Source: Eubacteriales bacterium (GTDB taxonomy: Bacteria; Bacillota; Clostridia; Oscillospirales; CAG-272). Taken from it: a DNA stretch of 64,000 nt. This document shows positions 13,872-53,004 of the stretch, piece after piece; positions within the stretch are counted from its first letter, which is position 1; the number at the start of each line of letters is the position of its first letter. The notes beneath the pieces were generated by a model. The model saw only the letters and a program-made list of their open reading frames with translations, ran no database searches and was not told the origin of the DNA. The stretch is taken from assembly GCA_045124505.1 (NCBI GenBank), contig JBGVLZ010000090.1, positions 24,507 through 88,506 of the forward strand. The letters are read 5' to 3'. The position numbers and the translations under genes are program-made.

Positions 13872-16331
13872 TTATTTTTTTAATCCTAATTTTTCGGCGG
13901 ATTCATCACGCATTTTGTATTTGAGTATTTTACCTGCGGCATTCATCGGGAATTCGTCAACGAACATGAAGTATCTCGGAACTTTATGTCTTGCGATGGA
14001 TGCATTACCGAATTCTTTCATTTCGTTTTCGTCTGCGGTTTCACCCTTGTGAAGAATTATCCATGCACAGCATTCTTCGCCGTATTTTTCATCCGGCACT
14101 CCGACTACCTGTACGTCACGCACTTTGGGGTTTGTGAGATAAAATTCTTCAATTTCACGGGGATAGAGGTTTTCTCCCCCTCGGATTATCATATCCTTGA
14201 GTCTTCCTGTAACCTTGTAATATCCGTCAGGAGTTCTCATGCATATGTCGCCCGAATGAAGCCATCCTTCGGCATCGATAGCCTGTGCAGTTGCTTCGGG
14301 CATCTTGTAGTAACCCTTCATGATGTTAAATCCACGTGCAACAAATTCACCGCTTTCACCGTCGGGAAGCTCATTACCCGTTTCGGGATCGATTATCTTA
14401 CATTCAACACCGGGGAAAGCACTTCCGACAGTTTCCACACGGTGGTCGAGATCTTCATTTACTTCACCCATTGTACAGCCGGGAGATGCTTCTGTCTGTC
14501 CGTAAACGGAGATTATTTCACGCATATTCATCTCAACCGATGCACGGCGCATAAGATCCGCAGGACAGTTTGCACCTGCCATAATACCTGTTCTCATATA
14601 TGAGAAATCGGTTTTTGCAAAATCGGGATGATTGAACATTGCAATAAACATTGTGGGAACACCGTTGAAACACGTAATGCGCTCATCGTTTACGCAGGCA
14701 AGCGATGATTTGGGAGAGAAGTAGGGAATAGGGCAAAGCGTACCGCCGTGAGTCATCATAGATGTCATGGAAAGAACCATTCCGAAGCAGTGGAACATAG
14801 GCACTTGGATCATCATTCGGTCAGCCGTTGAAAGATCCATTCTGTCACCGATAGTTTTACCGTTGTTTACGATATTGCGGTGTGTAAGCATAACACCCTT
14901 AGGAAAACCTGTTGTGCCTGATGTGTACTGCATATTACATACATCGTCGGGGCGTACAAGAGATGCACGTCGGCGTACCTCTTCATGCGGTATAAGAGTT
15001 GAACGGGAAAGCATCTGCTCCCATGTCAGACATCCATCCATATCGAATCCGACTGTTACGACGTTGCGAAGGAAGGGAAGATTTTTGGAGTACAAGGGAT
15101 TGCCCGGCTTAAGCTCCTTGAGCTCAGGACACAGTTCCTCAATGATCTCTTTATAATTGATATCCTTGCAGAATTCGACCATAACAAGCGTGTGCGTGTC
15201 GGACTGCTTAAGCAAATATTCAATTTCGTGAATTTTATATGCGGTGTTTACAGTAACCAGAACAGCGCCTATCTTTGTGGTCGCCCAGAATGTGATAAAC
15301 CACTGAGGTACGTTTGTTGCCCATATTGCAACATGATCCCCCGCTTTTACACCGAGTGAAATGAGGGCGGCGGCACATTCGTCAACGTCACGTCTGAACT
15401 GCTCATATGTCCTTGTATAATCGAGTGTAGGATATTTAAACGCATACTGGTCGGGATATTTTTCCGCCATTGTGTCAAGAACGTCGGAAAATGTTGCATC
15501 TATAACGTCATATTTTTTCCACACAAAGGTTCCTGTTTTTGCACGGTTGTAATAAGTGTGCTCAAAACTCTTTTTTTCACGTCCCAAAGCGGAAATATAG
15601 TTTGTAAAGTGCGTAAGCACGATATCCGCATCGCTTATTTCGTCATTCCATGCGGCACATATAAAACCGTCATAGTTAAGTGAAGAAAGTGCATTTAAAA
15701 GCTTTTTAACTTCAAGGTCACCTTCGCCGATAAGAACTGTCTTTCCGTCTTTCATATCACCGAGGCGGACATATTTTATGTACGCACCAAGGTTTTTTAT
15801 AGTTGTTTCAGCGGATTCGCCTGCGGAAAAGTATGTTCCTCTTACATTCCATGAAACACCTACACAAGATGAAGCAAAGTGATTGATAATATCAATAACA
15901 TTTTCGGTTTCCGCAAGATATCCTATTGTTTCAAAAAGGATATTGACGTCATTGTTCTGCGCACGCTTGATAGCGGCGGACAGCTTCTGATCCAGAATGT
16001 CAAACGAAACATTTTCTTCTGCCATTACAATGACATTGTCAACACCTGAAGCTGCCGCCATATCAACATATTTTTCTACAAGCTCAGATGTTGTTTCTTC
16101 GCTTTCAAGTGGGCAGGGCATTCGGAGGGCTGATACGGAAAGATTACGGTTTACGAGCTTTCTTTTGGCATCCGCCACACGGTCACGTCTTAAAATGCTG
16201 TCATGATGTCTGTTTCTTTCCTTTACCGCATCATATATTTCAAAGCCTTCAAAGCCGTAGTCGTAGGCATAGCGGCAGATATCAAGGAAGGAAGACCGTT
16301 TTACATTTTTTGTCGAAAATACGATCTTCAT
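13872..16331 (-). CDS. fusion protein: N-terminal xylose-isomerase-like TIM-barrel domain + C-terminal AMP-forming acyl-CoA synthetase
   Basis: Residues ~1-250 look like a sugar-phosphate isomerase/epimerase-type TIM barrel. The rest carries AMP-binding motifs (YTSGTTGFPKGVMLTH, GQTE, GEFVARGFNIMKGYY, GWLHSGD, GRLKDMIIRGGENLYPREIE, GKILK). The start is 1 nt downstream of the upstream gene's stop codon. Confidence 0.85.
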   Translation of the reverse strand: MKIVFSTKNVKRSSFLDICRYAYDYGFEGFEIYDAVKERNRHHDSILRRDRVADAKRKLVNRNLSVSALRMPCPLESEETTSELVEKYVDMAAASGVDNVIVMAEENVSFDILDQKLSAAIKRAQNNDVNILFETIGYLAETENVIDIINHFASSCVGVSWNVRGTYFSAGESAETTIKNLGAYIKYVRLGDMKDGKTVLIGEGDLEVKKLLNALSSLNYDGFICAAWNDEISDADIVLTHFTNYISALGREKKSFEHTYYNRAKTGTFVWKKYDVIDATFSDVLDTMAEKYPDQYAFKYPTLDYTRTYEQFRRDVDECAAALISLGVKAGDHVAIWATNVPQWFITFWATTKIGAVLVTVNTAYKIHEIEYLLKQSDTHTLVMVEFCKDINYKEIIEELCPELKELKPGNPLYSKNLPFLRNVVTVGFDMDGCLTWEQMLSRSTLIPHEEVRRRASLVRPDDVCNMQYTSGTTGFPKGVMLTHRNIVNNGKTIGDRMDLSTADRMMIQVPMFHCFGMVLSMTSMMTHGGTLCPIPYFSPKSSLACVNDERITCFNGVPTMFIAMFNHPDFAKTDFSYMRTGIMAGANCPADLMRRASVEMNMREIISVYGQTEASPGCTMGEVNEDLDHRVETVGSAFPGVECKIIDPETGNELPDGESGEFVARGFNIMKGYYKMPEATAQAIDAEGWLHSGDICMRTPDGYYKVTGRLKDMIIRGGENLYPREIEEFYLTNPKVRDVQVVGVPDEKYGEECCAWIILHKGETADENEMKEFGNASIARHKVPRYFMFVDEFPMNAAGKILKYKMRDESAEKLGLKK

Positions 16332-16332
16332 T

Positions 16333-17721
16333 TTATGCCTCCTCGGAAACGATCTTGTTGAGTGCGTTTATATATGCTCTTATACTTGCCGCAACGATAT
16401 CAGTTGATGTTCCGTTGCCCGAATAGAGCTTTCCGTTATTGCGGAGTCTGACAAGGGCGGAGCCAAGCGCTTCTTTTCCTTCCGTTACAGACTGAACCTG
16501 ATAATCATCAAGCTCATAATGGTGTCCGATGCACTGTTCGATTGCACGGAAAGCAGAGTCAATGGGACCGTCGCCGTTGCTTACGCCGCAGATTATTTCA
16601 TCGTTGTACTTCAAAGTGATCTGTGACATGGAGTTTGAAACATTACTGCTTGTTGTTGTGTATGTTTCAAAGTGGTATGTTGACGGCGCCTGCATTGCGG
16701 AGCTTGCAATAAGTGCTTCAAATTCCTTGGCACCCACAGAGCTTTTTTTCTCGCATATCTGTCGCAGAGCCTTGTGAACATTACCGACATCTGAATCCGA
16801 AAGCTCATAACCGAGGACAGATGCCGCCTGTGCCACCTGTGCTACAGAAGAATCTGCATCAAGTAATATCTTTGTTTTTTCGCTTATTTCGCTTTCTGAT
16901 TCATATGCTGTATGATTGATGCTTGATGTCATATCATCAATGCTTGCGTGTATTTTAGTATTATTGAGCTTGATTTCAGCGCCTATCTGCGCACCGCAAG
17001 CGTTGATCGCATCGGAAATGTATCCTGTCAAAAGAGCATTCTTTCCGATCATAGCGCACTTTATTCCGTCAGCACCGCTTTTGATTGCGGAAAATGCGCA
17101 TGCAACAGCCATATTTATACGGTCTGATACCTGAACGTAAACGGGTATATTTACCGCCTCTTTTACTTTTGAAACCAACGAAGCAATATCATCAGGTGTA
17201 CAAACACCTGCATCGTCGCACAAAGTAACGATCGCCGCACCGTTTGCTTCTGCTTCTTTTACTGCTGATATGAGATAGTCCTCATCTGCTCTTGTAGCGT
17301 CAAGGGCTGAAAATTCAACATCGTCACAAACAGCTTTTGACGCTTTGATAAGCTCTGTTATCTTTTCAAGCATTTTTGTCTGCTTGACGTGATATGTGTA
17401 TTCCATCTGAATCGTTGATACAGGTAATTCAACCTGCAAACGAGGGTTCTTGGCAGCTTTTATACATTCCCATGCAACTGCAATATTTTCACAGCTGAAG
17501 CCTACGGGAACAGCAAGTGTTGCATTCTGCACATTCTGTGCAATAGTTTTATAGATTATCGTGTCTTCACGAGCCGATCTTACAGCAGGAAGCTCAATTG
17601 CATCGACGCCGATATTAGCGGCACAGTTGGCAATAGCTGATTTTTCACGGAAGAGAAGAGATACTTCACGCTCCTGTGAAAGCTTCTTGAGAGTAATGTC
17701 AGTAACATTGATTTTTTTCAT
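16333..17721 (-). CDS. LeuA/HMGL-like paralog lacking catalytic residues but retaining the LeuA C-terminal regulatory (dimer) domain
   Basis: Collinear with 2-isopropylmalate synthase. However LRDGEQ is TLKKLSQ, HxH is VSD (YVQVSDRINMAV) and GERAGN is GKNALLTG. The C-terminus (GDGPIDSAFRAIE...GNGTSTDIVAASIRAYINALNKI) matches the Leu-binding regulatory domain. Start is set at MKKINVTD behind AAAGGAG; the longer ORF-track N-terminus overlaps the T-box terminator. Confidence 0.8.
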   Translation of the reverse strand: MKKINVTDITLKKLSQEREVSLLFREKSAIANCAANIGVDAIELPAVRSAREDTIIYKTIAQNVQNATLAVPVGFSCENIAVAWECIKAAKNPRLQVELPVSTIQMEYTYHVKQTKMLEKITELIKASKAVCDDVEFSALDATRADEDYLISAVKEAEANGAAIVTLCDDAGVCTPDDIASLVSKVKEAVNIPVYVQVSDRINMAVACAFSAIKSGADGIKCAMIGKNALLTGYISDAINACGAQIGAEIKLNNTKIHASIDDMTSSINHTAYESESEISEKTKILLDADSSVAQVAQAASVLGYELSDSDVGNVHKALRQICEKKSSVGAKEFEALIASSAMQAPSTYHFETYTTTSSNVSNSMSQITLKYNDEIICGVSNGDGPIDSAFRAIEQCIGHHYELDDYQVQSVTEGKEALGSALVRLRNNGKLYSGNGTSTDIVAASIRAYINALNKIVSEEA

Positions 17722-17766
17722 TTTTGAAACTCCTTTCAAATGTAAATGTAAAAGTGATCTTACCAA

Positions 17767-18000
17767 CAAAAAAACGCTTCCGTCTCCTTGTTGAACCAAA
17801 GAGACGAAAACGAAAATAATCACAGTTTCCGCGGTACCACTCTTCTTCATCCCGCACGGGATGCACTTTAGATGCTATCACATCTTAACTCTGTCACGGG
17901 AGTTTCCCGTCTGCCACTACTTGATATTTTCATGCCAGCCGCTCCGCGGTGAGTTCAGCAAAATTTTCTCAGTGTCTTGCACCGCCCGACACCTCTCTGT
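17767..18000 (-). promoter_or_regulatory. T-box riboswitch, specifier CUC (Leu)
   Basis: Read on the minus strand: AGAGAG...GGTGCAAG stem I, then the specifier-loop context GAA-CTC-A (plus 17950-17956). The T-box sequence is AGAGTGGTACCGCGG (plus 17829-17840). The terminator is CGTCTC..GAGACG plus a U-run (17767-17806). Confidence 0.85.
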
Positions 18001-18050
18001 ATGAAAAAAGCTTTGCGTACTATTCCGCATCCTTGCGTTTATTGCAAGCT

Positions 18051-18079
18051 ATTATATCATAATATTTTTAATTTGTCAA
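18051..18079 (-). promoter_or_regulatory. sigmaA-like promoter of the Leu T-box operon
   Basis: TTGACA - 17 nt - TATAAT on the minus strand. Confidence 0.6.
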
Positions 18080-18153: not shown

Positions 18154-18618
18154 TTACAATACTAATTCCATTCCTATTTTTTGGGGCACGAGTCCCAGTG
18201 CCTGATAAAATTTTAAAGCGGACTGATTACAGCTCCATACATTCAGCGTCAGATTATAACAATCATTTTCACGTGCAAGTCTTACTGCCGCTTCATAAAG
18301 CTCTTTGCCTATGTGCTTTCCCCGTAATTTTTCATCAACGCAAAGATCGTCAATATACAATGTTTTAATTTCGGTAAGTATGGAATTTTCTATGTGATGC
18401 TGAAAAATACAGAAGCAGTAACCCATAACCTCGTCATTTTCATCTGTATATACAAGAATGGGACGGTTCTCATCTTTAAGCAATTCTTCAAGTTCTTCTT
18501 CTGAATATTTTGTGCCTGCTTTGAAAATGTCCGGTCTGCCGTTGTGATGCACAAGACATACCTGTAACAACAGCTCTTTTATTTTCGGTATATCCTTTTT
18601 TTCTGCCATTCGTATCAT
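18154..18618 (-). CDS. GNAT-family acetyltransferase
   Basis: LCVDEKLRGKHIGKELY acetyl-CoA block. Start is at MIRMAEKK behind GGGAG, 14 nt after the DAHP synthase stop. Confidence 0.8.
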   Translation of the reverse strand: MIRMAEKKDIPKIKELLLQVCLVHHNGRPDIFKAGTKYSEEELEELLKDENRPILVYTDENDEVMGYCFCIFQHHIENSILTEIKTLYIDDLCVDEKLRGKHIGKELYEAAVRLARENDCYNLTLNVWSCNQSALKFYQALGLVPQKIGMELVL

Positions 18619-18631
18619 TTGTTTTCTCCCG

Positions 18632-19660
18632 TCAAAGCTTATCTGCAATATCAAGCACAAGGCGTTCCGTCTTTTCCCAGCCAAGGCAGGGATCGGTTAT
18701 TGATTTTCCGAAAATATGCTCCCCTGTGCTTTGCGCTCCGTCCTCTATGTAGCTTTCGATCATCAGCCCTTTTACAAGACGTCTGATGGTGGGATTTTGA
18801 TTTCGGCTGTGAACGATATCCTTTGCAATACGTATCTGCTCAATATATTGCTTTCCCGAATTGTTGTGGTTTGTATCTACAATGACCGAGGGATTTGCCA
18901 GATTTGACTTTTCATATAATTCTTCCACACGCAGAAGGTCTTCGTAGTGGTAATTTGAAGTGCTTCTTCCGGCATAGTCCACATACCCTCTCAGAATAGC
19001 GTGGGTATAGGGATTTCCGTCACTTGTGACCTCCCAGCCCTGATAAATAAATGTATGGCTTGACTGTGCGGCAACGATGGCATTCATCATAACACCGAGG
19101 TCACCGCCTGTCGGATTTTTCATTCCTACAGGTGCACCGACACCGCTTGCAGTCAGTCTGTGCTGTTGGTTTTCAACGGAACGTGCACCGACTGCGACGT
19201 ATGACAGCAGATCTGAAAGATAACGGTAATTTTCAGGATAAAGCATTTCATCAGCACAAGAAAAGTTATGATCTCTTAACGCTGCCAAATGAAGCTCACG
19301 TATGGCAACCAATCCCTTGTACATGTCGGGCTTTGCTTCCGGATCAGGCTGGTGAAGCATTCCTTTATAGCCTGCTCCCGTTGTTCTCGGTTTGTTTGTA
19401 TATATTCTCGGGATCATAACTATTTTATCCGCTACTTGCTCCTGAAGCCTGCGAAGCCTTGAAATATATTCAAGCACAGGCTCACTGTGGTCGGCAGAGC
19501 AGGGACCGATGATGAGAATAAATTTATCACAGCTTCCGTCAAATACAGCACGGATCATCTCGTCACGTTCTGATTTCACACGCTTCATTTTTTCTGTCAG
19601 GGGATATTCCTGTTTTACTTCTTCAGAAGAAGGCAGTCTTCTGTGAAATTGCATTTGCAT
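18632..19660 (-). CDS. 3-deoxy-7-phosphoheptulonate (DAHP) synthase, class I
   Basis: IIGPCS, RIYTNKPRTTGAGYKGM (KPRT block) and GMKNPTGG motifs. 342 aa. Confidence 0.9.
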   Translation of the reverse strand: MQMQFHRRLPSSEEVKQEYPLTEKMKRVKSERDEMIRAVFDGSCDKFILIIGPCSADHSEPVLEYISRLRRLQEQVADKIVMIPRIYTNKPRTTGAGYKGMLHQPDPEAKPDMYKGLVAIRELHLAALRDHNFSCADEMLYPENYRYLSDLLSYVAVGARSVENQQHRLTASGVGAPVGMKNPTGGDLGVMMNAIVAAQSSHTFIYQGWEVTSDGNPYTHAILRGYVDYAGRSTSNYHYEDLLRVEELYEKSNLANPSVIVDTNHNNSGKQYIEQIRIAKDIVHSRNQNPTIRRLVKGLMIESYIEDGAQSTGEHIFGKSITDPCLGWEKTERLVLDIADKL

Positions 19661-19925: not shown

Positions 19926-20357
19926 TTATAATTTATCCACATCGGCTTCGGTTATGATCTTGAAGCCTGCATCGCAAAGCGCTTTTTCAGCCGCATCGTT
20001 ATTTTCAACACGGATAACAACGTAAGCGTGCTTTTCTGTGCGTGCCATAAATGCATAAAGATATTCAATGTTGATCTTGTTTTCATCAAGCACTTTCAGA
20101 GCTGATGAAAGCTTACCCGGTGCATCGCCGATCTTTACACCGACAACGTCGGTGATCTTTATAAGATATCCTTCGTCTTTCAAGATTTTTTCTGCTGTTT
20201 CTTCATCGTTGACGATAAGGCGCAGTATGCCGAAATCCTGTGTTTCAGCAATAGAAAGTGCACGGATGTTTATATTATGAGCAGAAAGTGTTTCGGTGAT
20301 GGAAACGACTGCGCCCTGTTTGTTTTCAACAAATACCGTTAATTGTCTGATAGCCAT
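19926..20357 (-). CDS. ACT-domain protein (two ACT-like halves)
   Basis: 143 aa. The pattern LTVFVENKQGAVVSITETLSAHNINIRALS is repeated as GVKIGDAPGKLSSALKVLDENKINIEYLY. It lies immediately downstream of the PaaK-like ligase. Confidence 0.85.
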   Translation of the reverse strand: MAIRQLTVFVENKQGAVVSITETLSAHNINIRALSIAETQDFGILRLIVNDEETAEKILKDEGYLIKITDVVGVKIGDAPGKLSSALKVLDENKINIEYLYAFMARTEKHAYVVIRVENNDAAEKALCDAGFKIITEADVDKL

Positions 20358-20374: not shown

Positions 20375-21682
20375 TTATACAAGCTTTCTCTTGTCGATTA
20401 CACGGACGGCTTTGCCTTCGCTTCTTGCGATGCTCTTGGGTGCGACAAGATGAACGGCAGGATTTATGCCGAGCATTGTCTTCATTGCACCTGCAAGAGA
20501 TTTTTCCATGCTGAGAATTTCACTTACCTTGTCGGTGAACTTTTCGGGTGTCATTTCTACATTCACCTCAAATGTATCCGTGTTCTTTACACGGTCAACG
20601 ATGATCTGATAGTTTGGTTCATATCCTTCGTTAAGAAGTACTGTTTCTATCTGGCTGGGGAATACGTTTACACCCCTGATTATGAGCATATCGTCTGTTC
20701 TTCCCATCGGCTTTGCCATTTTGACGAGAGTTCTTCCGCAGGAGCATTTTTTGCGTGAAAGAACACAGATATCACGTGTGCGGTAACGCAAAAGCGGGAA
20801 TGCTTCCTTGTCAAGGGAAGTGAACACAAGCTCACCCTTCGAGCCTTCGGGAAGGACCTCACCTGTTTCAGGATCGATTATCTCGGCATAGAAGTGGTCC
20901 TCATTGATGTGCATACCTGCCTGCTCCTCACATTCAAATGCAACCCCGGGGCCGCTTGTTTCTGTAAGACCGTATATGTCATATGCCTTGATTCCAAGCG
21001 TTTTTTCAATACCCTGACGCATTTCCTCCGTCCACGGCTCAGCACCGAAAATGCCTGCTTTAAGCGGAATGTCTTCGGGCTTGTATCCCTGTTCCTTCAG
21101 AGTTTCACCGATATATGCCGCATAAGATGGGGTACAGCAGATGATCGAAGCGTTCAGATCCATCATGAACTGTATCTGACGGTCGGTGTTTCCTGACGAC
21201 ATGGGAAGCGTAAGACAGCCTACTTTGTGAGAACCGCCGTTAAGTCCGGGACCGCCTGTGAAAAGACCGTAGCCGTATGCGACCTGACAAACGTCTTTTT
21301 TCGTTCCGCCTGCGGCAGTTATTGCACGTGCACAGCAGTCTTCCCAAAGATCAATGTCGTGCTGTGTATAGAACGCCACAACACGCCTGCCTGTTGTGCC
21401 CGATGTTGACTGAATACGCACACAGTCCTCAAGCGGCTTTGCCAAAAGTCCGTAAGGATATGCATCTCTTAAATCTGCTTTTGTTAAAAACGGGAGCTTG
21501 TGAAGATCGTCAATTCCTTTGATATCTTCGGGCTTTACGCCCTTTTCATCCATAAGCTTTTTGTAGTAAGGGACGTTATCGTAAACGTGCTTTACCTGCT
21601 TGACGAGCTTTTCCGACTGAAGCTTTTTCATATCTTCGATCGGCATTGTTTCGATTTCCTTCTGATAGTAGTTTTGTGCCAT
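20375..21682 (-). CDS. phenylacetate--CoA ligase family (PaaK / F390-synthetase-like) adenylate-forming enzyme
   Basis: STSGTTGRRV P-loop, YGLTE, and ~435 aa architecture typical of PaaK. Start is at MAQNYYQKE behind AAGGATGG. Confidence 0.85.
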   Translation of the reverse strand: MAQNYYQKEIETMPIEDMKKLQSEKLVKQVKHVYDNVPYYKKLMDEKGVKPEDIKGIDDLHKLPFLTKADLRDAYPYGLLAKPLEDCVRIQSTSGTTGRRVVAFYTQHDIDLWEDCCARAITAAGGTKKDVCQVAYGYGLFTGGPGLNGGSHKVGCLTLPMSSGNTDRQIQFMMDLNASIICCTPSYAAYIGETLKEQGYKPEDIPLKAGIFGAEPWTEEMRQGIEKTLGIKAYDIYGLTETSGPGVAFECEEQAGMHINEDHFYAEIIDPETGEVLPEGSKGELVFTSLDKEAFPLLRYRTRDICVLSRKKCSCGRTLVKMAKPMGRTDDMLIIRGVNVFPSQIETVLLNEGYEPNYQIIVDRVKNTDTFEVNVEMTPEKFTDKVSEILSMEKSLAGAMKTMLGINPAVHLVAPKSIARSEGKAVRVIDKRKLV

Positions 21683-21752
21683 TTTGGACCATCCTTTCTT
21701 TTGCTCACTTTTGAGCTGTGTTTTGATAAGTTCGGAAGAGGATATGGCAAAC

Positions 21753-21995
21753 AAAAACGCCCTCCGCATTCCGATAAGAATACAGAGGACGAGAAAATCA
21801 ATAATCCCGTGGTACCACCTCAGTTCGCCGATACCTCACGGCAACGACCTTTTCAGGTACTGACATACCTTAGTTCTGTGACGGGAACTCCCGTTGCATC
21901 CTACTAAAGATTTCTCTTATTCAGCGCACTGCTAACAGAATGAATTCGAGAAGGACATCCGCTTTGCCTCGCACCACCCGGCAACTCTCTCCAGC
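21753..21995 (-). promoter_or_regulatory. T-box riboswitch, specifier UUC (Phe)
   Basis: Read on the minus strand: K-turn/AGTA region, then AGAGAG..GGTGCGAG, then the specifier context GAA-TTC-A followed by lower stem TTCTG (plus 21941-21947). The T-box sequence is GAGGTGGTACCACGG (plus 21803-21822). A terminator hairpin plus U-run lies at 21753-21791. Confidence 0.85.
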
Positions 21996-22060
21996 TTCTT
22001 TCCAACCTACTGGTTTCTGATCTTCGCATTTAGTGTTACAACTTATTCAATTGTGTCGTC

Positions 22061-29784: not shown

Positions 29785-29842
29785 TTTTTTCCGCACCGTG
29801 CGGAAGCATCACTTAATAAATAATTCGGAAGGAGGGTATGTG

Positions 29843-32800
29843 ATGAATAATGATATGACATTACAGCAAGTATCGGAATATTCAAAAAGACATAGGCGCA
29901 GAAAACGTTGGCAGAGCGTTGTTACTGTGATGGCGGCTGTTGTCGTGTTCGTCACAACGTATGCCCTTATACTTCCTGCCATAACATTGGTTAATGATCC
30001 CACATGCGGATTTTCAGAGCATGTACATACAGACGAATGCTTTACTGTCGCCGATGACGGCGAAAAGACACTTTTGTGTGAAGTTAAAGAGCATACACAT
30101 CACGAAATTGCATGTTATGCAGATTTTTCAGCCGATGTTGAAACGAAAGAGGATTGGGAAGCAACACTTGAAGATTTGAATCTTATCGGTGAATGGCACA
30201 GAGATGTCCTCGCAATTGCAAAATCACAGCTTGATTATGAAGAAAGCCGTGATAATCTCATTCTTAACGATGAAGGAAAGCTTTCAGGATATACAAGATA
30301 CGGTGAATGGTACGGCAATCCTTACGGTGATTGGTCTGCGATGTTCGCATCGTTCTGCTTGAATTATGCGGGTGTTACAAATATGCCGCTTGACAGCGAC
30401 GTAAACGCTTGGATATCAACACTTTCTGAAGAAAAATATGACTTTTACCGTACAGCGGGCGACCATGTACCGACATGCGGTGAGGTAGTATTCCTTGATA
30501 AGGATAAAGACGGAACACCCGATGAAGCGGGAATAGTTGCACAGATCATCCCCGACATTGACGGTAAAGGTGCAAAGATAAAGGTAATTGAAGGCGATTC
30601 CTCGAATAAAGTTCAGTATGTAATATATGAATATAATTCCGAAATGATAATCGGATATTCGATCTTACCCGACGGTCTGTATAAGGATAAGACGGTTACA
30701 GCGGAAATATTCACCGATTCATCATACGGAAGCATATTAAATGAAAATAATGCAGTAATCACTGTAAGCGGTGTAATGCCGAAGGACGGATATGTGTATG
30801 CATATCCCGTTGAAGATGAAGACGAAAGCACATTGTGCGCTTACGATATAACTGTGTTTGACGGTGACGGTAATGTCTTCCAGCCCCTTGGCGGCGACAG
30901 CCTTAAGGTTTCAATACAGTCCGATGTACTGAAAGAGGAGGCGATCGGTGAAGGGTACCATGCCGAGGCGTTCCACATTCCTGAAGATGGCGAGCCGCAG
31001 AGAATGTTGGCAAAATACATAGAAAGCGGAATAGAGTTTTCAGCAGAGCATTTCTCAACATACGCTGTGCGCGCTGCCAATAAAACATCTGTGAAAAGCA
31101 AAGAAGAGCTTGCCAATGCGATAAACAACGGCAGACAATACATTGAGATAACATCCTCATTTGAAGTCGCAAACAGTTTTACAATAACAAATGGTAAAAA
31201 TATTAAAATAGATCTCAACGGTAACACGCTGAAATATACCGGCGGAAGTGCCATGTTCAGTGTAGGAGATTGGAATTCAAGCGGCACTTTGACGATATGT
31301 GACTCCAAACAGCCCGACGAGACGGTTACAATGGTTAATTCAGAAAAACCGTTATACGGAAATCTTGCAACGCTCTCTGTGTCAGGCAATAATGCCACAT
31401 TGACTTACTATGTTACCGAAACAGCAATAACGAATGCACAGACAGGTGCAACGGTTGAAACGCTGTACAAACACACAATTACGACGACAGGTGCCATTGT
31501 CGGTAACGGACAGCCGATCGTCAGTGTCGGTAAAGGTGAGTTCACGCTTGAAAGCGGTATGCTCAGAAGCGGAACTAACAGAGCCGTATATCACGACTAC
31601 GCTGGCGGTACGACGAATTTGAAGGGCGGATATATCTGCGGTTTTACAAAAGCATTTGACAGTGGATGGTCTAATCAAAATGAGTTCGGCGGTGCTGTTT
31701 TTACTGAATCAGGAACGCTGAATATCTCGGACAATGCAGTTCTTGCAGCAAATAAAGCAGGGAACGGCGGCGCTATCGGTGTAATAAATCAATCTACGCT
31801 GAAAATGAGCGGCGGTATCATAAGCGGAAACATTGCTCAGTCAAACAACGGTGACGGAAGCGGCGGTGGAGGAATTTGCACACAAGGCGCAACAGTGAAC
31901 ATAACAGGCGGTTACATAACGAATAATGTTGCAACCGGAAGTGAATATCTTACAGGCGGCGGCGGTATCTTTCTAAGGGGCTCGGAATGTAAGTTCGAGA
32001 TCTCGGGCGGTTATGTAACGGCAAATAAAGCCAATGGTGGCGGCGGATTGAAAACAAAATCCGGTGATTATGCAAGTTTCACAATGACAGGCGGCTTTTT
32101 CTCCGGTAACATGGCTACAGCTTGCGAGGGCGGCGGTGTTGCTATTGAATATAACGGAAGAGGCAATCTTTCGGGCGGTTACATAACGAACAATATTATC
32201 GAAAAAACAGAACACTGGGGCGGCGGAGGCTTCTTCTGCGCCGACCAAGCGGTTATCTATATGACCAACCTCCTTGTCACAGAAAATACAGCAGGAGGCT
32301 TTGGCGGCGGTATTTCAGGCTGTCCTACAGGTAAATTGACACTTTATATTGACAGTGGATGTGCCGTATTCGATAACGATGATATTGTATACGACGGTGA
32401 GGTAAACTGGGTTTCCGGCGGTACAAAGGACGGTAAGGACTTTGAAAAATGTAAAGAAGTTTTCCAAAGCCACGGACATGCGGACTATTTCTGTGCGAAC
32501 CAGAGTACGATTTTCGGAACGATGCTCGGTAAAGGCTCAGCCGAATGGGAGGGAAGCGCCGACGGTGTTCCCGTAACTGCAGGCAAGGGAGACATAGTCA
32601 CCGCAAACAATGTAATGGGACTTCAGTCGCATGCGAGCGAAGAGGATAAACAAAACGCCATGGCTCTGTCGAAGCTGTATATAAACGGCAACCACTCCGA
32701 CACGCACGGCGGCGGAATAATGTGTAATGGATCGCTCGTCATTGGTGAAGCGGTAGACTTTGAAGTTTCCACCCAAGCACAGATCCAAGCACAAAAGGTT

Positions 32801-34204
32801 CTTTATAAAGGCGGAACCAATGTGGAACTCCCCCTTGATAATTATGACTTCAAATTCCAGCTTATACAGGGATATCTCAATGGAGAGGTTATTGAGATTT
32901 CAAAGGCTGATAAGGACGGTGTGATATCGTTCATCAACGGAATGAAGTTCTCCGAAAAGGGCACTTACGTGTATTATATAAAGGAAGTTCCGGACGATAA
33001 AACGAACACGATACTGTTTGATAATTCGATATACGAAGTGAAGTTTACCGTAAACCGTGACAACGGTACGGAATTCAACGGCAAGATTAAGTATGTATAT
33101 CAGATCACAAGCATGTCGATCAATAAAAGTACTGACGGCGGCAATACATGGTCAAATGTTAGTCAGACTTCAACTCCGCAGGGTGAATCTGTCATAATTC
33201 CTCTTGCAAAGGGAAATGCTTTTGTAAACCGCACAATGGAATTTACAAAGCTGACTGTTAAAAAGGAATGGGACGGCGGTGTTGTTGGTGCAAATTCAGT
33301 CACGGTTTTGCTCAAGCAAAACGGTGTTGAATATAACAGAGTGACACTTAATGCTTCGAATGGCTGGTCATATACGTGGAATAATCTCCCGGCTGGATAC
33401 AGCTACACTGTTGAAGAGCTTCCCGTTGCAGGCTACAAGCCAAGCTATAATGTAGTGCCGGGCAAAACTTCAATTGTACAAAAGCAGCTGGAGAAAGGAA
33501 CGTATTGGGTTCCTGCAACGTCTATCAAAGCAAATACAAAATATATTATCGTAAGTCCTGACGGTAAAAAGGCACTGTGCGTTACAAGTGATCATGTGGA
33601 TTCGGCGTTTACATCGGATGATACAGCAAATATTAGCGCACAGCTCAGTCAGATATCACTCAATGGTACTAAATATGATGTTTGGATGAACAATATAACT
33701 ATTCCAAAAGGAGCCATATTTACACCTCAAAGCAGACCTAATAACGGCGGTTTTGCTTTAAAGAGTGACATCGGAGATTCATGGCTGCTTGCACAGACAG
33801 CGGGCGGAAATGATCTTAAAGGTACAACCGGTATTGACTGGTCCTCGCTTGTTTCTTATAAAAACGGAATTTTGAGGCTGAATTACGAGTTTGCTAATAC
33901 AGAAACTGATTTGCGTACCGTCGTATTTGAAAGCGGAAAATTCAATACGGTCAAAGCGGATTCGCCGGTAAATGCGGCATTCCTTTTAACACAAGTAAGC
34001 GGTAGCCCGACAGTATCCGAAACTATTCTTGAGGACGCAACGATAGTTATCACAAACACAGGTACCCCCGGATATAAGTTACCTGAAACGGGCGGGGCCG
34101 GTACATTTATGTATATTGCGGCAGGCATGGCGCTCATAACGCTTGGAGCCTACCTTGCATATAAGAAATTAAAAGGCGGGAAGGAGGACAGCGCATCCTT
34201 CTGA
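29843..34204 (+). CDS. LPXTG-anchored giant surface protein / putative pilus tip adhesin
   Basis: GGAAGGAGGG RBS and an N-terminal TM/signal segment. It has a CHAP-like region, a Gly-rich beta-helix with GGAI/GGGI (Pmp-like) repeats, and Cna-B/prealbumin-like domains (VTVKKEWDG...NGWSYTWNNLPAGYSYTVEELPVAGY). The C-terminus is LPETGG plus a TM segment plus KKLKGGK. Confidence 0.85.
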   Translation: MNNDMTLQQVSEYSKRHRRRKRWQSVVTVMAAVVVFVTTYALILPAITLVNDPTCGFSEHVHTDECFTVADDGEKTLLCEVKEHTHHEIACYADFSADVETKEDWEATLEDLNLIGEWHRDVLAIAKSQLDYEESRDNLILNDEGKLSGYTRYGEWYGNPYGDWSAMFASFCLNYAGVTNMPLDSDVNAWISTLSEEKYDFYRTAGDHVPTCGEVVFLDKDKDGTPDEAGIVAQIIPDIDGKGAKIKVIEGDSSNKVQYVIYEYNSEMIIGYSILPDGLYKDKTVTAEIFTDSSYGSILNENNAVITVSGVMPKDGYVYAYPVEDEDESTLCAYDITVFDGDGNVFQPLGGDSLKVSIQSDVLKEEAIGEGYHAEAFHIPEDGEPQRMLAKYIESGIEFSAEHFSTYAVRAANKTSVKSKEELANAINNGRQYIEITSSFEVANSFTITNGKNIKIDLNGNTLKYTGGSAMFSVGDWNSSGTLTICDSKQPDETVTMVNSEKPLYGNLATLSVSGNNATLTYYVTETAITNAQTGATVETLYKHTITTTGAIVGNGQPIVSVGKGEFTLESGMLRSGTNRAVYHDYAGGTTNLKGGYICGFTKAFDSGWSNQNEFGGAVFTESGTLNISDNAVLAANKAGNGGAIGVINQSTLKMSGGIISGNIAQSNNGDGSGGGGICTQGATVNITGGYITNNVATGSEYLTGGGGIFLRGSECKFEISGGYVTANKANGGGGLKTKSGDYASFTMTGGFFSGNMATACEGGGVAIEYNGRGNLSGGYITNNIIEKTEHWGGGGFFCADQAVIYMTNLLVTENTAGGFGGGISGCPTGKLTLYIDSGCAVFDNDDIVYDGEVNWVSGGTKDGKDFEKCKEVFQSHGHADYFCANQSTIFGTMLGKGSAEWEGSADGVPVTAGKGDIVTANNVMGLQSHASEEDKQNAMALSKLYINGNHSDTHGGGIMCNGSLVIGEAVDFEVSTQAQIQAQKVLYKGGTNVELPLDNYDFKFQLIQGYLNGEVIEISKADKDGVISFINGMKFSEKGTYVYYIKEVPDDKTNTILFDNSIYEVKFTVNRDNGTEFNGKIKYVYQITSMSINKSTDGGNTWSNVSQTSTPQGESVIIPLAKGNAFVNRTMEFTKLTVKKEWDGGVVGANSVTVLLKQNGVEYNRVTLNASNGWSYTWNNLPAGYSYTVEELPVAGYKPSYNVVPGKTSIVQKQLEKGTYWVPATSIKANTKYIIVSPDGKKALCVTSDHVDSAFTSDDTANISAQLSQISLNGTKYDVWMNNITIPKGAIFTPQSRPNNGGFALKSDIGDSWLLAQTAGGNDLKGTTGIDWSSLVSYKNGILRLNYEFANTETDLRTVVFESGKFNTVKADSPVNAAFLLTQVSGSPTVSETILEDATIVITNTGTPGYKLPETGGAGTFMYIAAGMALITLGAYLAYKKLKGGKEDSASF

Positions 34205-34257
34205 TGCCCAAACATTTTAAATCAATAAAGTACAAATTTTCGAAAGGAAAAAACAAA

Positions 34258-35925
34258 ATGAAAAACATGAAGAAACTCAGCGCAATCGTTCTTTCGGTTG
34301 TAATGATCCTTACAATGTCGCTCTCGACATTTGCATTTGACATTACTCTTGAAAGTGCCACACAGACTCCCACAAAAGATCACACATACGATATCTATCA
34401 GATATTCACAGGTGATCTCGAAGCAGGTGTTCTTGCAAACATCAAGTACGGTGCAAACTACGGTGCAACAGGCACAGCTGTTCCCAAGAGCGAACTTGAT
34501 GCTATCACAGATGCACGTGCATTCGCAAAGAAGCTTGTAAACGAAGAATTGCTTAATGGCGATGCTGTTGCAACTCTTAACGAAGCAAACAACTGGGCTG
34601 CAAAGGATCTTGCAGCAGGTTATTACCTCATCGTTGAAAAGACAACACAGGAAAACCTTCCCGAAGGCGAAACACTTTCCGCTTACATAGTTCAGGTAAA
34701 AGACGATGTTGTTATGAGCCCTAAGTCCGGTATAACATCCATCGATAAGATCATCTCTGACGATGACAACCAGATTCCCAACATTCTTGATATCACAGCT
34801 GACGGTAAATTCGACAACGTAAGTATCGGTTCAAATGTTGAATTTACACTTACAGCTCCCATCGTATCTAACGCTGATGATTTCGATTTCTGCTACTTCA
34901 TCATCAACGATACTATCTGCGAAGGCTTTACATTCAACAATGATATCACAGTAACTATCGGCGGACATCCTGTTACAGAAGGCGTTGATTACACAGTATT
35001 CACAGGCGCAGAAGCTGACGGCTGCACATTCCGCGTTGCACTTCTCAACGCAAAGGATTATCCCGGCGAAGAAGTTGTTGTTAAGTACACAGCACTTCTT
35101 AACGATAAGGCAGTTATAGGCGAACTTAAGGGTAACCCCAACAAGGCAAACCTTACATATTCCAACAATCCCGAATTTGATTACGAAGGCACACATGAAG
35201 ACGGTAAGCCCAAGGAAGAATTCGAAGGCGGCAACAAGAAGCTTCCTCTCGGTGTAACAGTTGATATCTGGACACGTACATATACAACAGGTATCAAGGT
35301 AGTTAAGGTTGACGAAAACGGCAACGCACTTCCCGGCGCATCCTTCAAACTCGAAGGTAAAAACGTTGTAGGCGTTCTTGTTAAGCGCGAAGTATTTACA
35401 GAAGCTGAAAACGGTGAATACTGGCTTTTGAAAAACGGCTTCTATACAAAAGATGATCCTGCTACAGAAGGAATGGATACATCATTGTATGCAGACGTAA
35501 ACAAGAAGTACACTAAGACAATCGAAATAGTTCAGGATACAAACGTAACTGACATGCTTGTTGAAGGTCAGGTTGGCGCAAACGGCGTTATCATCTTTGA
35601 CGGTCTTGGTGAAGGCACATTCACTATCACGGAAACAGTTACACCTGCAGGTTATAACACTATCGCTCCTTTCGACGTTGTTATCGAATGGGATGCACCT
35701 GTTGCAGGCTCCATCGACTGTGATTGGACAGTAACAGTAGCTGATAAGGCGATCGACGTTAACGAAGAAGGCGTATTTGAATTTGAAGTAGTAAACCACT
35801 CCGGTATTGAACTTCCTGACACAGGTGGTATCGGTACAACTATATTCTATGTTGTAGGTGCTGCTTTGGTAGTATTTGCTGTAGTAATTCTCGTTACGAG
35901 AAAGCGCATGAGCAAGGATAACTGA
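34258..35925 (+). CDS. major pilin (backbone) subunit, LPXTG
   Basis: Signal peptide; pilin-motif-like VVMSPKS; E-box FTITETVTPAGYN; LPDTGG plus a TM segment plus RKRM. Confidence 0.85.
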   Translation: MKNMKKLSAIVLSVVMILTMSLSTFAFDITLESATQTPTKDHTYDIYQIFTGDLEAGVLANIKYGANYGATGTAVPKSELDAITDARAFAKKLVNEELLNGDAVATLNEANNWAAKDLAAGYYLIVEKTTQENLPEGETLSAYIVQVKDDVVMSPKSGITSIDKIISDDDNQIPNILDITADGKFDNVSIGSNVEFTLTAPIVSNADDFDFCYFIINDTICEGFTFNNDITVTIGGHPVTEGVDYTVFTGAEADGCTFRVALLNAKDYPGEEVVVKYTALLNDKAVIGELKGNPNKANLTYSNNPEFDYEGTHEDGKPKEEFEGGNKKLPLGVTVDIWTRTYTTGIKVVKVDENGNALPGASFKLEGKNVVGVLVKREVFTEAENGEYWLLKNGFYTKDDPATEGMDTSLYADVNKKYTKTIEIVQDTNVTDMLVEGQVGANGVIIFDGLGEGTFTITETVTPAGYNTIAPFDVVIEWDAPVAGSIDCDWTVTVADKAIDVNEEGVFEFEVVNHSGIELPDTGGIGTTIFYVVGAALVVFAVVILVTRKRMSKDN

Positions 35926-39979: not shown

Positions 39980-40235
39980 TAGATTAATAGGTTATGATGA
40001 AGGCAGTACGGTAGGATCAATGTTTACAGAGAGCCGCATAATGGTGCAAGTGCGGTAACAAATTTTACCTGAAGAACACTTCGGAGCCTGCGGAAGAACG
40101 CCTTTTGGTTATTAGAACCGCACGTTGATCGCGAAAAGATTTAATGAAGAGGGCCGTTTTACGGTCAATTTGGGTGGTATCGCGGAAGAGGAGCCTTTCG
40201 TCCCATATTATGGGGCGGAAGGCATTTTGTTTTTC
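39980..40235 (+). promoter_or_regulatory. T-box riboswitch, probable specifier AAC (Asn)
   Basis: AGAGAG (40028-40033)...GGTGCAAG. The specifier context is CTGAAG-AAC-A-CTTCGG (AAC at 40075-40077). The T-box sequence is AATTTGGGTGGTATCGCGG (~40168-40186). The terminator GCCTTTCGTCCC/GGGGCGGAAGGC is followed by a T-run. Confidence 0.85.
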
Positions 40236-40291
40236 TTCCGTATAAAATGATTAAAAAAGAAAATATTTTACTAAAAGGAGTACAATATATT

Positions 40292-42067
40292 ATGCTTAGA
40301 ACACACACTTGTAATGAACTCGGTATAAATAATATCGGGGAAAAAGTAACCCTTACAGGCTGGATGGATACTGTGCGTGACCACGGAGGCGTGCTCTTTG
40401 TTGACCTTCGTGACCATTACGGAGTAACACAGATCGTTCTTTCCGATGATTCGCTTATCGCAGGCATCGCAAAGGAAACAGTTATTCTTGTTGAGGGTGT
40501 TGTTTCCAAGAGAGATGAAGAAACAGTAAACCCCAAGATCGCAACAGGTCTTATCGAAGTGAAGGCTGAAAAGGTTGAGGTGCTTGGTCCCTGCCAGCTC
40601 GGACTTCCTTTCGAAATCGATACATCAACACAGACAAGAGAAGAGGTAAGACTTAAGTACAGATATCTTGACCTTCGTAACCGCAAGATACACGATAACA
40701 TCGTGCTTCGTTCAAAGATACTCAGCTATCTCCGTTCCCAGATGGAAGATCTCGGATTTTTGGAAATACAGACACCTATTCTTACAGCTTCATCCCCTGA
40801 AGGCGCAAGAGACTATCTTGTTCCCAGCCGTAAGCACAAGGGCAAGTTCTACGCTCTGCCTCAGGCTCCTCAGCAGTTCAAGCAGCTTCTTATGGCATCG
40901 GGCTTTGACCGTTACTTCCAGATAGCACCTTGCTTCCGTGATGAGGATGCACGTCAGGACAGATCACCCGGTGAATTCTACCAGCTCGACTTTGAAATGT
41001 CCTTTGCAACACAGGAGGACGTATTTGCAGTTGCTGAAACTGTTGTATATAACACATTTACAAAGTTCTCTGACAAGAAGGTATCAAAGCCTCCGTTTAG
41101 AAGGATCACATTTGCTGATGCAATGCTGAAGTACGGTACGGATAAGCCCGACCTTCGCAACCCCCTGGAAATAAAGGATCTTACAGACTTCTTTGCAAGA
41201 CATGAATTCCTTGATATCAACGGCAGAACAGTTCCGTTCAAGAATAAGCTTGTACGCGGTATCGTTGCAAACTACCTTGTGAAGAAGGACGGTGAGGGCG
41301 ACGGTAAAAAGGCGTTTGAAAAGGCTATCGACACATATTCAAGAAGCATCGGAATGAAGTTCGGATGCGGATATATAACACTTGAAGGCGATGATTTCAA
41401 AGGTCCTATTGCAAAATTCCTTACAGACGAACAGAAAAAAGAGCTTTGCGAGATATGCGGCGTAAAAGAAGGCGACTCCATCTTCTTCATCAGCGACAGC
41501 GCTTCTGTTATCGACCGTCTTTCCGGCGAAATGAGAACATGGATCGGTAACGAGCTTGGACTTATCAAGGACGATTCCTTTGAATTCTGCTTCATTGTTG
41601 ACTTCCCGATGTATGAACTCAACGCTGAAACAGGCAGAATTGACTTCACACACAACCCCTTCTCAATGCCCCAGGGCGGTATGGATGCACTTCTTAATAA
41701 AGATCCGCTTGAAATATTTGCTTATCAGTACGATATCGTATGTAACGGTGTTGAGCTTTCTTCAGGTGCTGTACGTAACCACAACCCCGAAATAATGAGA
41801 AAAGCGTTTGAAATTGCAGGTTACGGTGAGGAAGACCTCAAGGCTAAGTTCGGCGCGCTTTACACGGCGTTTGCATACGGTGCTCCCCCTCATGCAGGTA
41901 TGGCGCCCGGCGTTGACAGAATGATAATGCTTATTGCAGGCGAAGAAACAATAAGAGATGTTATCGCATTCCCGCTTAACGGAAATGCACAGGATCTCAT
42001 GATGGGCGCACCGGGCGAGGTTACGGAGCAGCAGCTTCGTGAGGTTCACATAAAAGTTAGAGATTGA
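40292..42067 (+). CDS. aspS: aspartate--tRNA ligase (probably non-discriminating)
   Basis: Class IIb motifs (FYQLDFEMSF, GVELSSGAVRNH, GAPPHAGMAPGVDR). Start is at MLRTHTCNELG. It lies in an operon with gatCAB. Confidence 0.93.
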   Translation: MLRTHTCNELGINNIGEKVTLTGWMDTVRDHGGVLFVDLRDHYGVTQIVLSDDSLIAGIAKETVILVEGVVSKRDEETVNPKIATGLIEVKAEKVEVLGPCQLGLPFEIDTSTQTREEVRLKYRYLDLRNRKIHDNIVLRSKILSYLRSQMEDLGFLEIQTPILTASSPEGARDYLVPSRKHKGKFYALPQAPQQFKQLLMASGFDRYFQIAPCFRDEDARQDRSPGEFYQLDFEMSFATQEDVFAVAETVVYNTFTKFSDKKVSKPPFRRITFADAMLKYGTDKPDLRNPLEIKDLTDFFARHEFLDINGRTVPFKNKLVRGIVANYLVKKDGEGDGKKAFEKAIDTYSRSIGMKFGCGYITLEGDDFKGPIAKFLTDEQKKELCEICGVKEGDSIFFISDSASVIDRLSGEMRTWIGNELGLIKDDSFEFCFIVDFPMYELNAETGRIDFTHNPFSMPQGGMDALLNKDPLEIFAYQYDIVCNGVELSSGAVRNHNPEIMRKAFEIAGYGEEDLKAKFGALYTAFAYGAPPHAGMAPGVDRMIMLIAGEETIRDVIAFPLNGNAQDLMMGAPGEVTEQQLREVHIKVRD

Positions 42068-48289: not shown

Positions 48290-48551
48290 ATGTAAACACT
48301 GTGAAGAAAACGGCAGAAAAAGGTTTTCGCAGAGAGTCGGCGGCAGGTGTAAGCCGATAAAACTGATTTCGGTAAGCCACATCATTTCTGAGTGGGAGAG
48401 GTGAAGACAGTAGCTTCTCACGTTAAGCCGCGTTAAGGCAAAGGGCTTTGTGATGAGTCCGAAGTGGCATTTTTATGCAAATTGAGTGGTACCGCGGATC
48501 ATTCCGTCTCAAGGTTGTTAAAGGACTTTGAGACGTTTTTTGTTTTCACGC
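48290..48551 (+). promoter_or_regulatory. T-box riboswitch, tentative specifier AUC (Ile)
   Basis: AGAGAG..GGTGTAAG. The lower stem CAGAAA/TTTCTG is the same geometry as the Phe leader, with AC-ATC-A immediately 5' of TTTCTG (ATC at 48381-48383). The T-box sequence is AAATTGAGTGGTACCGCGG (48479-48497). The terminator is CGTCTCAA..TTGAGACG plus a T-run (48505-48551). Confidence 0.8.
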
Positions 48552-52689: not shown

Positions 52690-52892
52690 TAAATTCGAAC
52701 CTTTGGGAATTCAGTGAAATCGTTCACTTTCACTCACGGCGAAATAATTCACTTGGTGAATTGTGAATTTGATGCTGCCGCATCAAGTGAAATTAAATCC
52801 ACCAACTCGCCGTCGAGGCGAATTTCACACGCCGCAGGCGTATTTCATATTGCAAAGCAATATTTCATCCACCCGTAAGGGTGGATTTAATT
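52690..52892. repeat. array of ~7 different short hairpins separated by (A)TTTCA(C/T)/GAAAT spacers
   Basis: Hairpins read directly: AGTGAA..TTCACT, AATTCAC-TTGG-GTGAATT, TGATGC..GCATCA, CGCC..GGCG, ACGCC-GCA-GGCGT, ATTGC-AAA-GCAAT, ATCCACCC-GTAA-GGGTGGAT. Confidence 0.55.
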
Positions 52893-52928
52893 GAAAATGA
52901 CAGATTCCTGTCGGAATCTGTCATTTTC
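52893..52928. terminator. 16-bp perfect hairpin directly 3' of tRNA-Thr (terminator for the minus-strand tRNA)
   Basis: GAAAATGACAGATTCC-TGTC-GGAATCTGTCATTTTC. Confidence 0.6.
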
Positions 52929-53004
52929 TGGAGCTGCTAGACAGAGTCGAACTGTCGACCTCATCCTTACCAAGGATGTGCTCTGCCAGCTGAGCCATAG
53001 CAGC
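52929..53004 (-). tRNA. tRNA-Thr: tRNA-Thr (anticodon GGU), CCA-encoded
   Basis: The minus strand GCTGCTATGGCTCAGCTGGCAGAGCACATCCTTGGTAAGGATGAGGTCGACAGTTCGACTCTGTCTAGCAGCTCCA folds as a cloverleaf. It has a 7-bp acceptor, a D-arm GCTC/GAGC with GG, anticodon loop TTGGTAA, and T-arm GACAG-TTCGACT-CTGTC. Confidence 0.9.

Follow-up and report, generated by a model that had tools for sequence, protein, structure and literature searches.

The window analysed here is a stretch of 64,000 nucleotides from an Eubacteriales bacterium (assembly GCA_045124505.1, contig JBGVLZ010000090.1); the positions given for its features are those of the window. Its minus strand holds a promoter, a T-box leader, a gene for a protein of 463 amino acids (aa) related to 2-isopropylmalate synthase (LeuA), and a gene for an 819-aa fusion of a triose-phosphate isomerase (TIM) barrel with an AMP-forming acyl-CoA ligase (Table 1). 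The LeuA-like protein has kept the fold and the C-terminal regulatory domain of LeuA, and it has lost the residues that carry out the chemistry.

A T-box leader allows expression of its genes in response to the uncharged form of the cognate tRNA. The specifier loop of the leader reads GAA-CUC-A in the Rfam alignment, i.e. the leucine codon CUC, and its T-box core, AGAGUGGUACCGCG, is followed by the terminator. With a Leu specifier, a UGGN core and a competing terminator, it is a Leu-class T-box. The listed open reading frame (ORF) of 505 aa was rejected as the true gene: its start falls within the terminator. The true start is the ATG at 17724, with the ribosome-binding site (RBS) AAAGGAG ahead of it, which gives the 463 aa; orthologs have 462. 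At the other end of the gene, the stop codon TAA (16335-16333) is followed by a single nucleotide and then by the ATG of the fusion at 16331. The first-pass annotation had proposed a Leu T-box ahead of a 463-aa LeuA paralog, with a stop codon 1 nt upstream of the start of a ligase fusion, and all three points hold.

Two Pfam domains are recognized in the LeuA-like protein. HMGL-like (PF00682) matches residues 5-227 with an E-value of 3.8e-32, over profile positions 2-222 of 260, and the end of the barrel remains unmatched. The C-terminal domain, LeuA_dimer (PF08502), is covered nearly from end to end and shows the conserved motifs GDGPIDSAF, GNGTSTDI and AYINALNKI. For residues 280-461 the best NCBIfam stretches are those of bacterial LeuA models. 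As equivalogs these models fail: the best one, NF002086, gives 253 bits, below its cut-off of 532, and TIGR00973 gives 224.6 bits against a cut-off of 598.7.

We aligned the protein with the LeuA structures of Listeria and Neisseria and, pairwise over the full length, with a canonical LeuA (P0255), to which it is 29% identical from end to end. In these alignments DTTLRDGEQ reads DITLKKLSQ, SAEDA reads SALDA, PDTVG reads CDDAG, HCHDD reads QVSDR, and GIGERAGN is shortened to IG-----KN. Of the metal ligands, Asp of RDGEQ and the two histidines of His-x-His correspond to K14, Q198 and S200, and Asn of GERAGN falls in a stretch that is deleted or replaced. The substrate Arg is K13, the catalytic Glu of xEDA is L141 and the Thr of PDT is D171. 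The HESGIH and GKHSG linker stretches were not found in the protein in the alignment to LeuA. The first reading had described a protein collinear with 2-isopropylmalate synthase in which every catalytic signature is lost. Collinearity is borne out by the end-to-end alignment and by the predicted fold, and all residues with an assigned metal-binding or catalytic role are indeed replaced; however, "every" goes slightly too far, as some residues are still there: D9 and T11 (DTTL), S103, D142 and R145 (EDAxR), and D170 (PDT). A mere shift of the catalytic residues was considered and rejected: the two independent structure-anchored alignments, the full-length pairwise alignment and the family alignment described below agree.

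The AlphaFold2 (AF2) model of the protein has a predicted local distance difference test score (pLDDT) of 86.5. In Foldseek, its barrel superposes on the N-terminal domain of Listeria LeuA (3ewb) with a template-modelling (TM) score of 0.92 and a root-mean-square deviation of 1.7 Å, and over its full length the model hits leucine-bound LeuA of M. tuberculosis at an E-value of about 1e-21. The first-pass annotation had left to such a model whether a metal site exists: the LeuA barrel is there and half of the old active face is conserved, but the ligand positions hold other residues. From the motif replacements and the superposition of the model on LeuA, therefore, the fold of LeuA is retained and the chemistry-bearing residues are not.

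The protein belongs to a large and old family and is not a one-off. Scanning one genome per GTDB species, we matched relatives with an intact reading frame in 382 species; the locus sets used below are the best-scoring 80 per scan. The best 80 relatives, 77-92% identical, come from metagenome-assembled genomes of ruminant and other animal-gut Clostridia, many of them labelled Acutalibacteraceae. An exhaustive search among representatives at 50% identity yields over 100 clusters of full-length proteins (about 460 aa), with identities of 30-49%. Members of the family align to the query in one stretch, true LeuAs (about 510 aa) in two.

Column frequencies were taken from an alignment of 106 representatives at 50% identity or less (given here as residue and count). 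The column of the metal Asp (Asp14) holds E17/Q13/K11, that of His198 E24/Q15/S11 and that of His200 S59/N8/A8. The substrate Arg column reads R34/K27/C17 and the column of the Thr of PDT T32/D24/S18. At the catalytic Glu141, with E25/L24/I13, Glu is kept in 25 of the 106. The losses are more than chance, because they are the same across these representatives. Since the catalytic positions are unconserved throughout the family and not merely shifted, the protein, as far as its residues tell, cannot make isopropylmalate, citramalate or homocitrate in the way of the known metal-dependent synthases; that it is no synthase had been the initial view as well. It is a LeuA by descent and fold, yet it fails in the defining catalytic features and should not be filed as 2-isopropylmalate synthase. 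In databases, members of the family are named "hypothetical protein", [quoted passage not shown] and, wrongly, "2-isopropylmalate synthase".

The gene is clearly under purifying selection and is not decaying. Among 79 close orthologs the ratio of non-synonymous to synonymous substitution rates (dN/dS), approximate as dS is near saturation, is 0.07 overall, 0.09 in the barrel and linker and 0.025 in the regulatory domain. The same C-terminal domain holds most of the invariant columns of the family alignment (GDGPIDAAF, GxGxSTDI, AYxNALNKI); described at first as well conserved, it is in fact the most constrained region. With its catalytic motifs missing and its database label of "hypothetical protein", the gene could be taken for a decaying leuA pseudogene or an annotation artefact. 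The probability of this is negligible, as the conservation refutes it: the frame is intact in all 382 species under the low overall dN/dS, the clusters at 50% identity have diverged deeply, the T-box, the RBS and the downstream coupling are conserved, and the fold is predicted with confidence.

In the barrel, residues D9, T11, F25, P101, S103, QMEY106-109, K114, E137, D142, R145 and D170 are invariant or nearly so. In the AF2 model they are placed at the C-terminal ends of strands β1 and β4-6 and make up one half of the old catalytic face; the other half, on the side of β7 and β8, varies freely across the family. From its position in the model, this half-site may be a ligand pocket or a protein interface. 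The word "dead" holds for LeuA chemistry only: the barrel is selected, and a half-site is kept on its catalytic face.

Five short proteins (P0242, P0247, P0248, P0257 and P0263) join the LeuA_dimer C-terminus of the family to fragments of MFS, TGT, response-regulator receiver or 7TMR-HDED proteins. They were rejected as real fusions, judged to be probable assembly or gene-call chimeras, and left unused.

The gene that follows directly is the same in every locus assessed. Counting loci with at least 700 nt of downstream sequence, the fusion comes directly after the LeuA-like gene in 137 of 137 (75 close and 62 distant), and when the TIM domain is taken as the starting point, five of five look-ups arrive at a LeuA-like gene immediately upstream. 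The 1-nt spacer is kept in 65 of the 75 close loci assessed. The tight coupling of the two genes, suspected from the window, is thereby conserved, and their pairing has no exception among the loci counted.

The ligase domain of the fusion has intact core motifs (YTSGTTGFPKG, YGQTE, GRLKD, AGKILK) and scores 674 bits with NCBIfam PRK12583; by domain and motifs it belongs to the ANL superfamily. Identity across the family is 64-83% in the ligase domain, 27-54% in the TIM barrel and 33-53% in the LeuA-like protein. The TIM barrel is xylose-isomerase-like, and Foldseek places it at a TM-score of about 0.7 to sugar 3-epimerases, AsbF and Art22, a generic similarity only; sequence and fold searches gave no specific function for it. 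Most fusions of the family keep the canonical TIM metal ligands: E/K134, D162, H165, H187/H189, D192 and E227. In the clade of the window these positions are replaced, with N162, R164, G165, Y187, R189 and A227 (fusion alignment, loci L081-L163). From the residues at these sites, both barrels, that of the LeuA-like protein and that of the fusion, look non-catalytic in this organism.

Homologs that appeared as "TIM-only" stand-alone proteins were rejected as such: they are frameshift fragments of the fusion from error-prone assemblies, each with a LeuA-like gene upstream. The annotations "TIM barrel protein, partial" and "sugar phosphate isomerase/epimerase" exist because of such frameshift-broken fusions. 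In the long-contig assemblies L164 and L165, several short ORFs stand in place of the fusion and of the PFOR gene downstream of it, which indicates frameshift errors; L168 may be a true split of the TIM barrel from the ligase. Roughly half of the close relatives, and several distant ones, have an Amidohydro_2 gene (PF04909) directly 3' of the fusion, e.g. at about 11936-12748 in L051, 11968-12768 in L081, 8536-9345 in L165 and 8615-9406 in L167; it is absent from the window.

It is conceivable, though unlikely, that the LeuA-like barrel has acquired a new ligand-binding or catalytic function, with isovaleryl-CoA or 2-oxoisocaproate or jointly with the TIM barrel of the ligase, so that the protein would be an enzyme or a carrier and not a pure sensor. 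The dN/dS of 0.09 in the barrel would fit such a function, and so would the invariant or nearly invariant F25, P101, S103, E108, Y109, K114, D142, R145 and D170 on the catalytic face, the canonical metal site in the partner barrel of most family members and the Amidohydro_2 gene often found after the fusion. However, all metal and acid/base residues of the superfamily are lost with no new consensus in their place, and the β7/β8 side is free to vary and carries a deletion. The clade of the window has lost the metal ligands of the partner and still keeps the pair, and the route from isovalerate to leucine requires no extra enzyme.

Control by the T-box extends over the family. A T-box core lies within 260 nt upstream in 121 of the 157 loci with enough upstream sequence, and of 125 readable T-boxes ahead of orthologs 119 have CUC or CUG as their specifier, the rest being parsing failures that also show GAACUCA. 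Specifiers outside the Rfam alignments were read with a pattern heuristic and checked by eye; the Phe and Val leaders discussed below were read from sequence context. The Leu T-box reaches as far as relatives with 42% identity and a Synergistaceae genome. Locus L081, which seemed to lack a T-box by the Rfam gathering score, has a core with a CUC specifier in the pattern search, and the idea that it has none was rejected. As read from its specifiers, the T-box control of the LeuA-like gene is leucine-specific throughout.

The neighbourhoods of distant relatives contain further enzymes. An IlvE-type class-IV aminotransferase stands beside the pair in 18 of 83 distant loci, and a PFOR-type 2-oxoacid:ferredoxin oxidoreductase of 1175 aa directly downstream in 9 of the 83. 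No canonical leuA was found in the window or in any fetched locus, the search covering the loci themselves. Many loci also carry one or two fusions of a helix-turn-helix (HTH) domain, a cupin and a ligase, preceded by a T-box for Ile (AUC, in 49 cases) or Val (GUA, in about 25). In related loci a PaaK-type ligase and an ACT-pair protein lie behind a Phe T-box, with UUC in 8 of 9 specifiers. The Leu module is made of the dead LeuA and the TIM-ligase fusion, the Ile and Val modules of HTH-cupin-ligase paralogs, and the Phe module of PaaK and ACT. The window holds the Leu, Ile and Phe modules, the last of them 2.5 kb from the Leu module, and the Val module is absent. Each ligase type is tagged by the T-box of an amino acid whose carbon skeleton exceeds that of a common fermentation acid by one CO2. 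Altogether, the ilvE and PFOR neighbours and the sibling ligases with Ile, Val and Phe T-boxes point to a synthesis of leucine from isovalerate. Loci in which Ile and Val paralogs lie beside the Leu module include L010, L023, L051, L096, L108 and L140.

The same enzymes could in principle run the other way, and the pair might serve leucine catabolism, the production of branched acids or the activation of iso-branched acids for lipids instead of leucine supply. PFOR-type enzymes and IlvE also operate oxidatively, and acyl-CoA ligases do feed lipid synthesis. Yet a T-box means expression under leucine shortage, energy conservation in fermentation proceeds without AMP-forming ligases, and the parallel ligases under Ile, Val and Phe T-boxes speak for a supply of amino acids. 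We consider a catabolic or lipid role very improbable.

As for the LeuA-like protein itself, it could be a structural scaffold or dimerisation platform that serves the ligase, perhaps also the oxidoreductase, without any response to leucine; its C-terminal domain would then be there for dimerisation alone. Dimerisation is one of the two roles of the Pfam domain, allostery being the other, and strict adjacency with translational coupling suggests a stoichiometric complex. In contrast, the motifs of feedback-sensitive LeuA (GDGPxDA, GxGxSTD, AYxxAxN) show the highest conservation in the whole protein, the rest of the system is leucine-specific, with a Leu T-box throughout, and the sibling ligases carry small-molecule-sensor domains too (cupin, ACT). 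We regard a scaffold blind to leucine as a distinctly unlikely outcome.

To the reading of the locus as a module induced by leucine starvation, which activates isovalerate for reductive carboxylation to leucine and has the dead LeuA as its leucine-sensing partner, we give an even chance. The T-box, the LeuA-like gene and the TIM-ligase gene would form a two-gene operon that is on when tRNA-Leu is uncharged. In the committed, ATP-consuming step, the ligase would form the CoA thioester of a short branched acid, isovalerate being the likeliest. A ferredoxin-dependent 2-oxoacid oxidoreductase would then join isovaleryl-CoA and CO2 to 2-oxoisocaproate, which IlvE would transaminate to leucine. The LeuA-like protein, a presumed non-catalytic descendant of isopropylmalate synthase co-produced with the ligase through translational coupling, would dimerise and bind leucine with the retained allosteric domain of LeuA, and its degenerate barrel would contact and throttle the ligase. 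End-product feedback would in this way have passed from the enzyme that opens the classical pathway to the one that opens the alternative. The binding of leucine, a physical complex with the fusion, the direction of the regulation and isovalerate as substrate are what we infer from the genes and their arrangement.

The chemistry of such a route has precedent in the rumen. In the 1960s, Allison and co-workers reportedly showed biochemically that rumen bacteria carboxylate isovalerate to leucine; what defines the pathway is labelling and not a set of genes. The neighbourhoods of the distant relatives encode what it takes, a ligase, a PFOR-type oxidoreductase and a branched-chain aminotransferase, and hosts with a ruminant gut and predicted induction by leucine shortage fit it as well. 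A dead LeuA and an extra TIM barrel, however, are not anticipated by the pathway as known, and the substrate of the ligase is deduced here.

The regulatory part can be compared with several known systems. Like LeuA (PRK00915/TIGR00973; 3ewb, 3rmj, 1sr9/3fig), the protein has the barrel, the linker subdomains and the C-terminal allosteric domain, and its gene is under leucine-responsive control. Unlike LeuA, it has no metal ligands, substrate Arg, catalytic Glu, HSGxH or GERAGN, its scores stay below half the equivalog cut-offs, and in the loci fetched its gene is always paired with the ligase and never part of a leu operon. In the HisZ-HisG pair, a dead paralog of histidyl-tRNA synthetase is the regulatory subunit of ATP phosphoribosyltransferase. 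The LeuA-like protein resembles HisZ in being a paralog that has lost its catalytic residues under purifying selection, derived from an enzyme that recognizes the same amino acid, and in the end-product sensitivity it would confer on the first enzyme of a route. The folds and the pathway differ, and complex and leucine response are here predicted. As with the ACT partner of PaaK and the small subunit of acetohydroxyacid synthase, a separate sensor gene sits beside the enzyme it is thought to control; unlike in these, the sensor fold is the regulatory domain of LeuA, with a vestigial catalytic domain attached. By analogy, the closest models for the working of the LeuA-like protein would be HisZ, as a pseudoenzyme regulatory subunit, and the ACT protein that accompanies PaaK. 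The plant methylthioalkylmalate synthase (6e1j), the top Foldseek match, is another derivative of LeuA that has lost one functional half, and the reciprocal one: it kept catalysis and lost the regulatory domain, whereas the present family kept the regulatory domain and lost catalysis. A very limited literature search found nothing on isopropylmalate synthase as a pseudoenzyme, and an earlier description is possible.

Several observations weigh against the isovalerate module with its leucine sensor. The nearest solved structures of the ligase are fatty-acyl, feruloyl and malonyl-CoA synthetases, and its substrate cannot be read from homology. Neither the canonical metal ligands in the TIM barrel of most fusions nor the frequent Amidohydro_2 gene is needed by the model. 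About 30 distant loci have no recognisable T-box, several of them with ilvE directly upstream, and in this window no oxidoreductase or ilvE adjoins the pair. Finally, the polar half-site on the catalytic face of the barrel could be a ligand pocket and not an interface.

More tentatively, and with a chance that we put short of even, the four acid-CoA ligase modules (Leu, Ile, Val and Phe) could constitute an unrecognised T-box regulon of gut and rumen Clostridia that underlies, at the level of genes, the making of amino acids from volatile fatty acids through reductive carboxylation. In the Leu module, the leucine-feedback domain with its gutted barrel would have been moved onto the first enzyme of an alternative pathway, as a new family of pseudoenzyme regulators. 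Fibre-degrading rumen bacteria require branched-chain volatile fatty acids, and the genes by which amino acids are made from isovalerate, 2-methylbutyrate, isobutyrate and phenylacetate are poorly characterised. The specifier codon of the T-box labels each ligase with its amino acid, and in hundreds of uncultured gut species this allows genes to be assigned directly and the assignments to be tested. If true, the dead LeuA would be a clear case of an allosteric module reused as a stand-alone sensor. The automatic annotation of the family as "2-isopropylmalate synthase" inflates the leucine prototrophy predicted for metagenome-assembled genomes.

Table 1. Positions of the Leu module, of its sibling modules and of other features in the 64,000-nt window.
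Feature	Positions	Strand	Remarks
Promoter TTGACA-17-TATAAT with TG extension	18051-18079	minus	12/12 consensus matches, sigma-70-type
T-box leader, RF00230	17797-18042	minus	124.5 bits (gathering score 93), full model 1-219
Intrinsic terminator of the T-box leader	17775-17812	minus	16-bp stem, then U7
LeuA-like protein, 463 aa and stop codon	16333-17724	minus	Pfam HMGL-like and LeuA_dimer
Degenerate HMGL-like TIM barrel, residues 1-230	17035-17724	minus	Metal site lost, half-site kept
LeuA allosteric/dimerisation domain, residues 332-458	16351-16731	minus	PF08502, E 2.2e-31, profile 4-130/131
Coupling junction GAGGAGG-GCA-TAA-A-ATG	16329-16344	minus	Shine-Dalgarno sequence within the last codons of the upstream gene
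TIM-ligase fusion, 819 aa	13872-16331	minus	
Xylose-isomerase-like TIM barrel, fusion residues 1-275	15507-16331	minus	Pfam AP_endonuc_2, AF2 pLDDT 90.7
AMP-forming acyl-CoA ligase, fusion residues 276-819	13872-15506	minus	PF00501 1.1e-95, PF13193 2.6e-15
Phe (UUC) T-box	21782-22033	minus	92.2 bits, just under the gathering score of 93
PaaK-type phenylacetate-CoA-ligase-like gene	20375-21769	minus	Downstream of the Phe T-box
ACT-pair protein	19926-20357	minus	After the PaaK-type gene
Ile (AUC) T-box	48292-48514	plus	Precedes the HTH-cupin-ligase
HTH_3, Cupin_2 and AMP-binding ligase fusion, 762 aa	48605-50893	plus	Behind the Ile T-box
DAHP synthase	18632-19660	minus	
GNAT acetyltransferase	18154-18684	minus	Overlaps DAHP synthase
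AMP-binding ligase, C-terminal part	22-561	plus	Cut by the window start
Asn (AAC) T-box	39985-40208	plus	Upstream of AspRS
AspRS	40247-42067		
Amidase/GatA-like	42380-43546		
GatB	43564-45006		
Gut-1 small RNA (RF01706) and adjoining tRNA gene	52817-52893, 52932-53004	minus	Gut-1: 86 bits
Cna_B/pilin-type surface protein genes (1468 aa, 573 aa) and 2332-aa ORF	29798-35925, 55693-62691	plus	

The genes for DAHP synthase and the GNAT acetyltransferase lie between the Phe and Leu modules; the 265-nt gap ahead of the former showed no leader RNA. The truncated AMP-binding ligase at the start of the window is 33% identical to the ligase domain of the fusion. Elsewhere, the Asn T-box and the AspRS, amidase/GatA-like and GatB genes that follow it look like T-box control of tRNA-dependent asparagine formation. 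The window further contains a Gut-1 RNA next to a tRNA gene and, in two regions, Cna_B/pilin-type surface protein genes and a long ORF that are unrelated to the modules.

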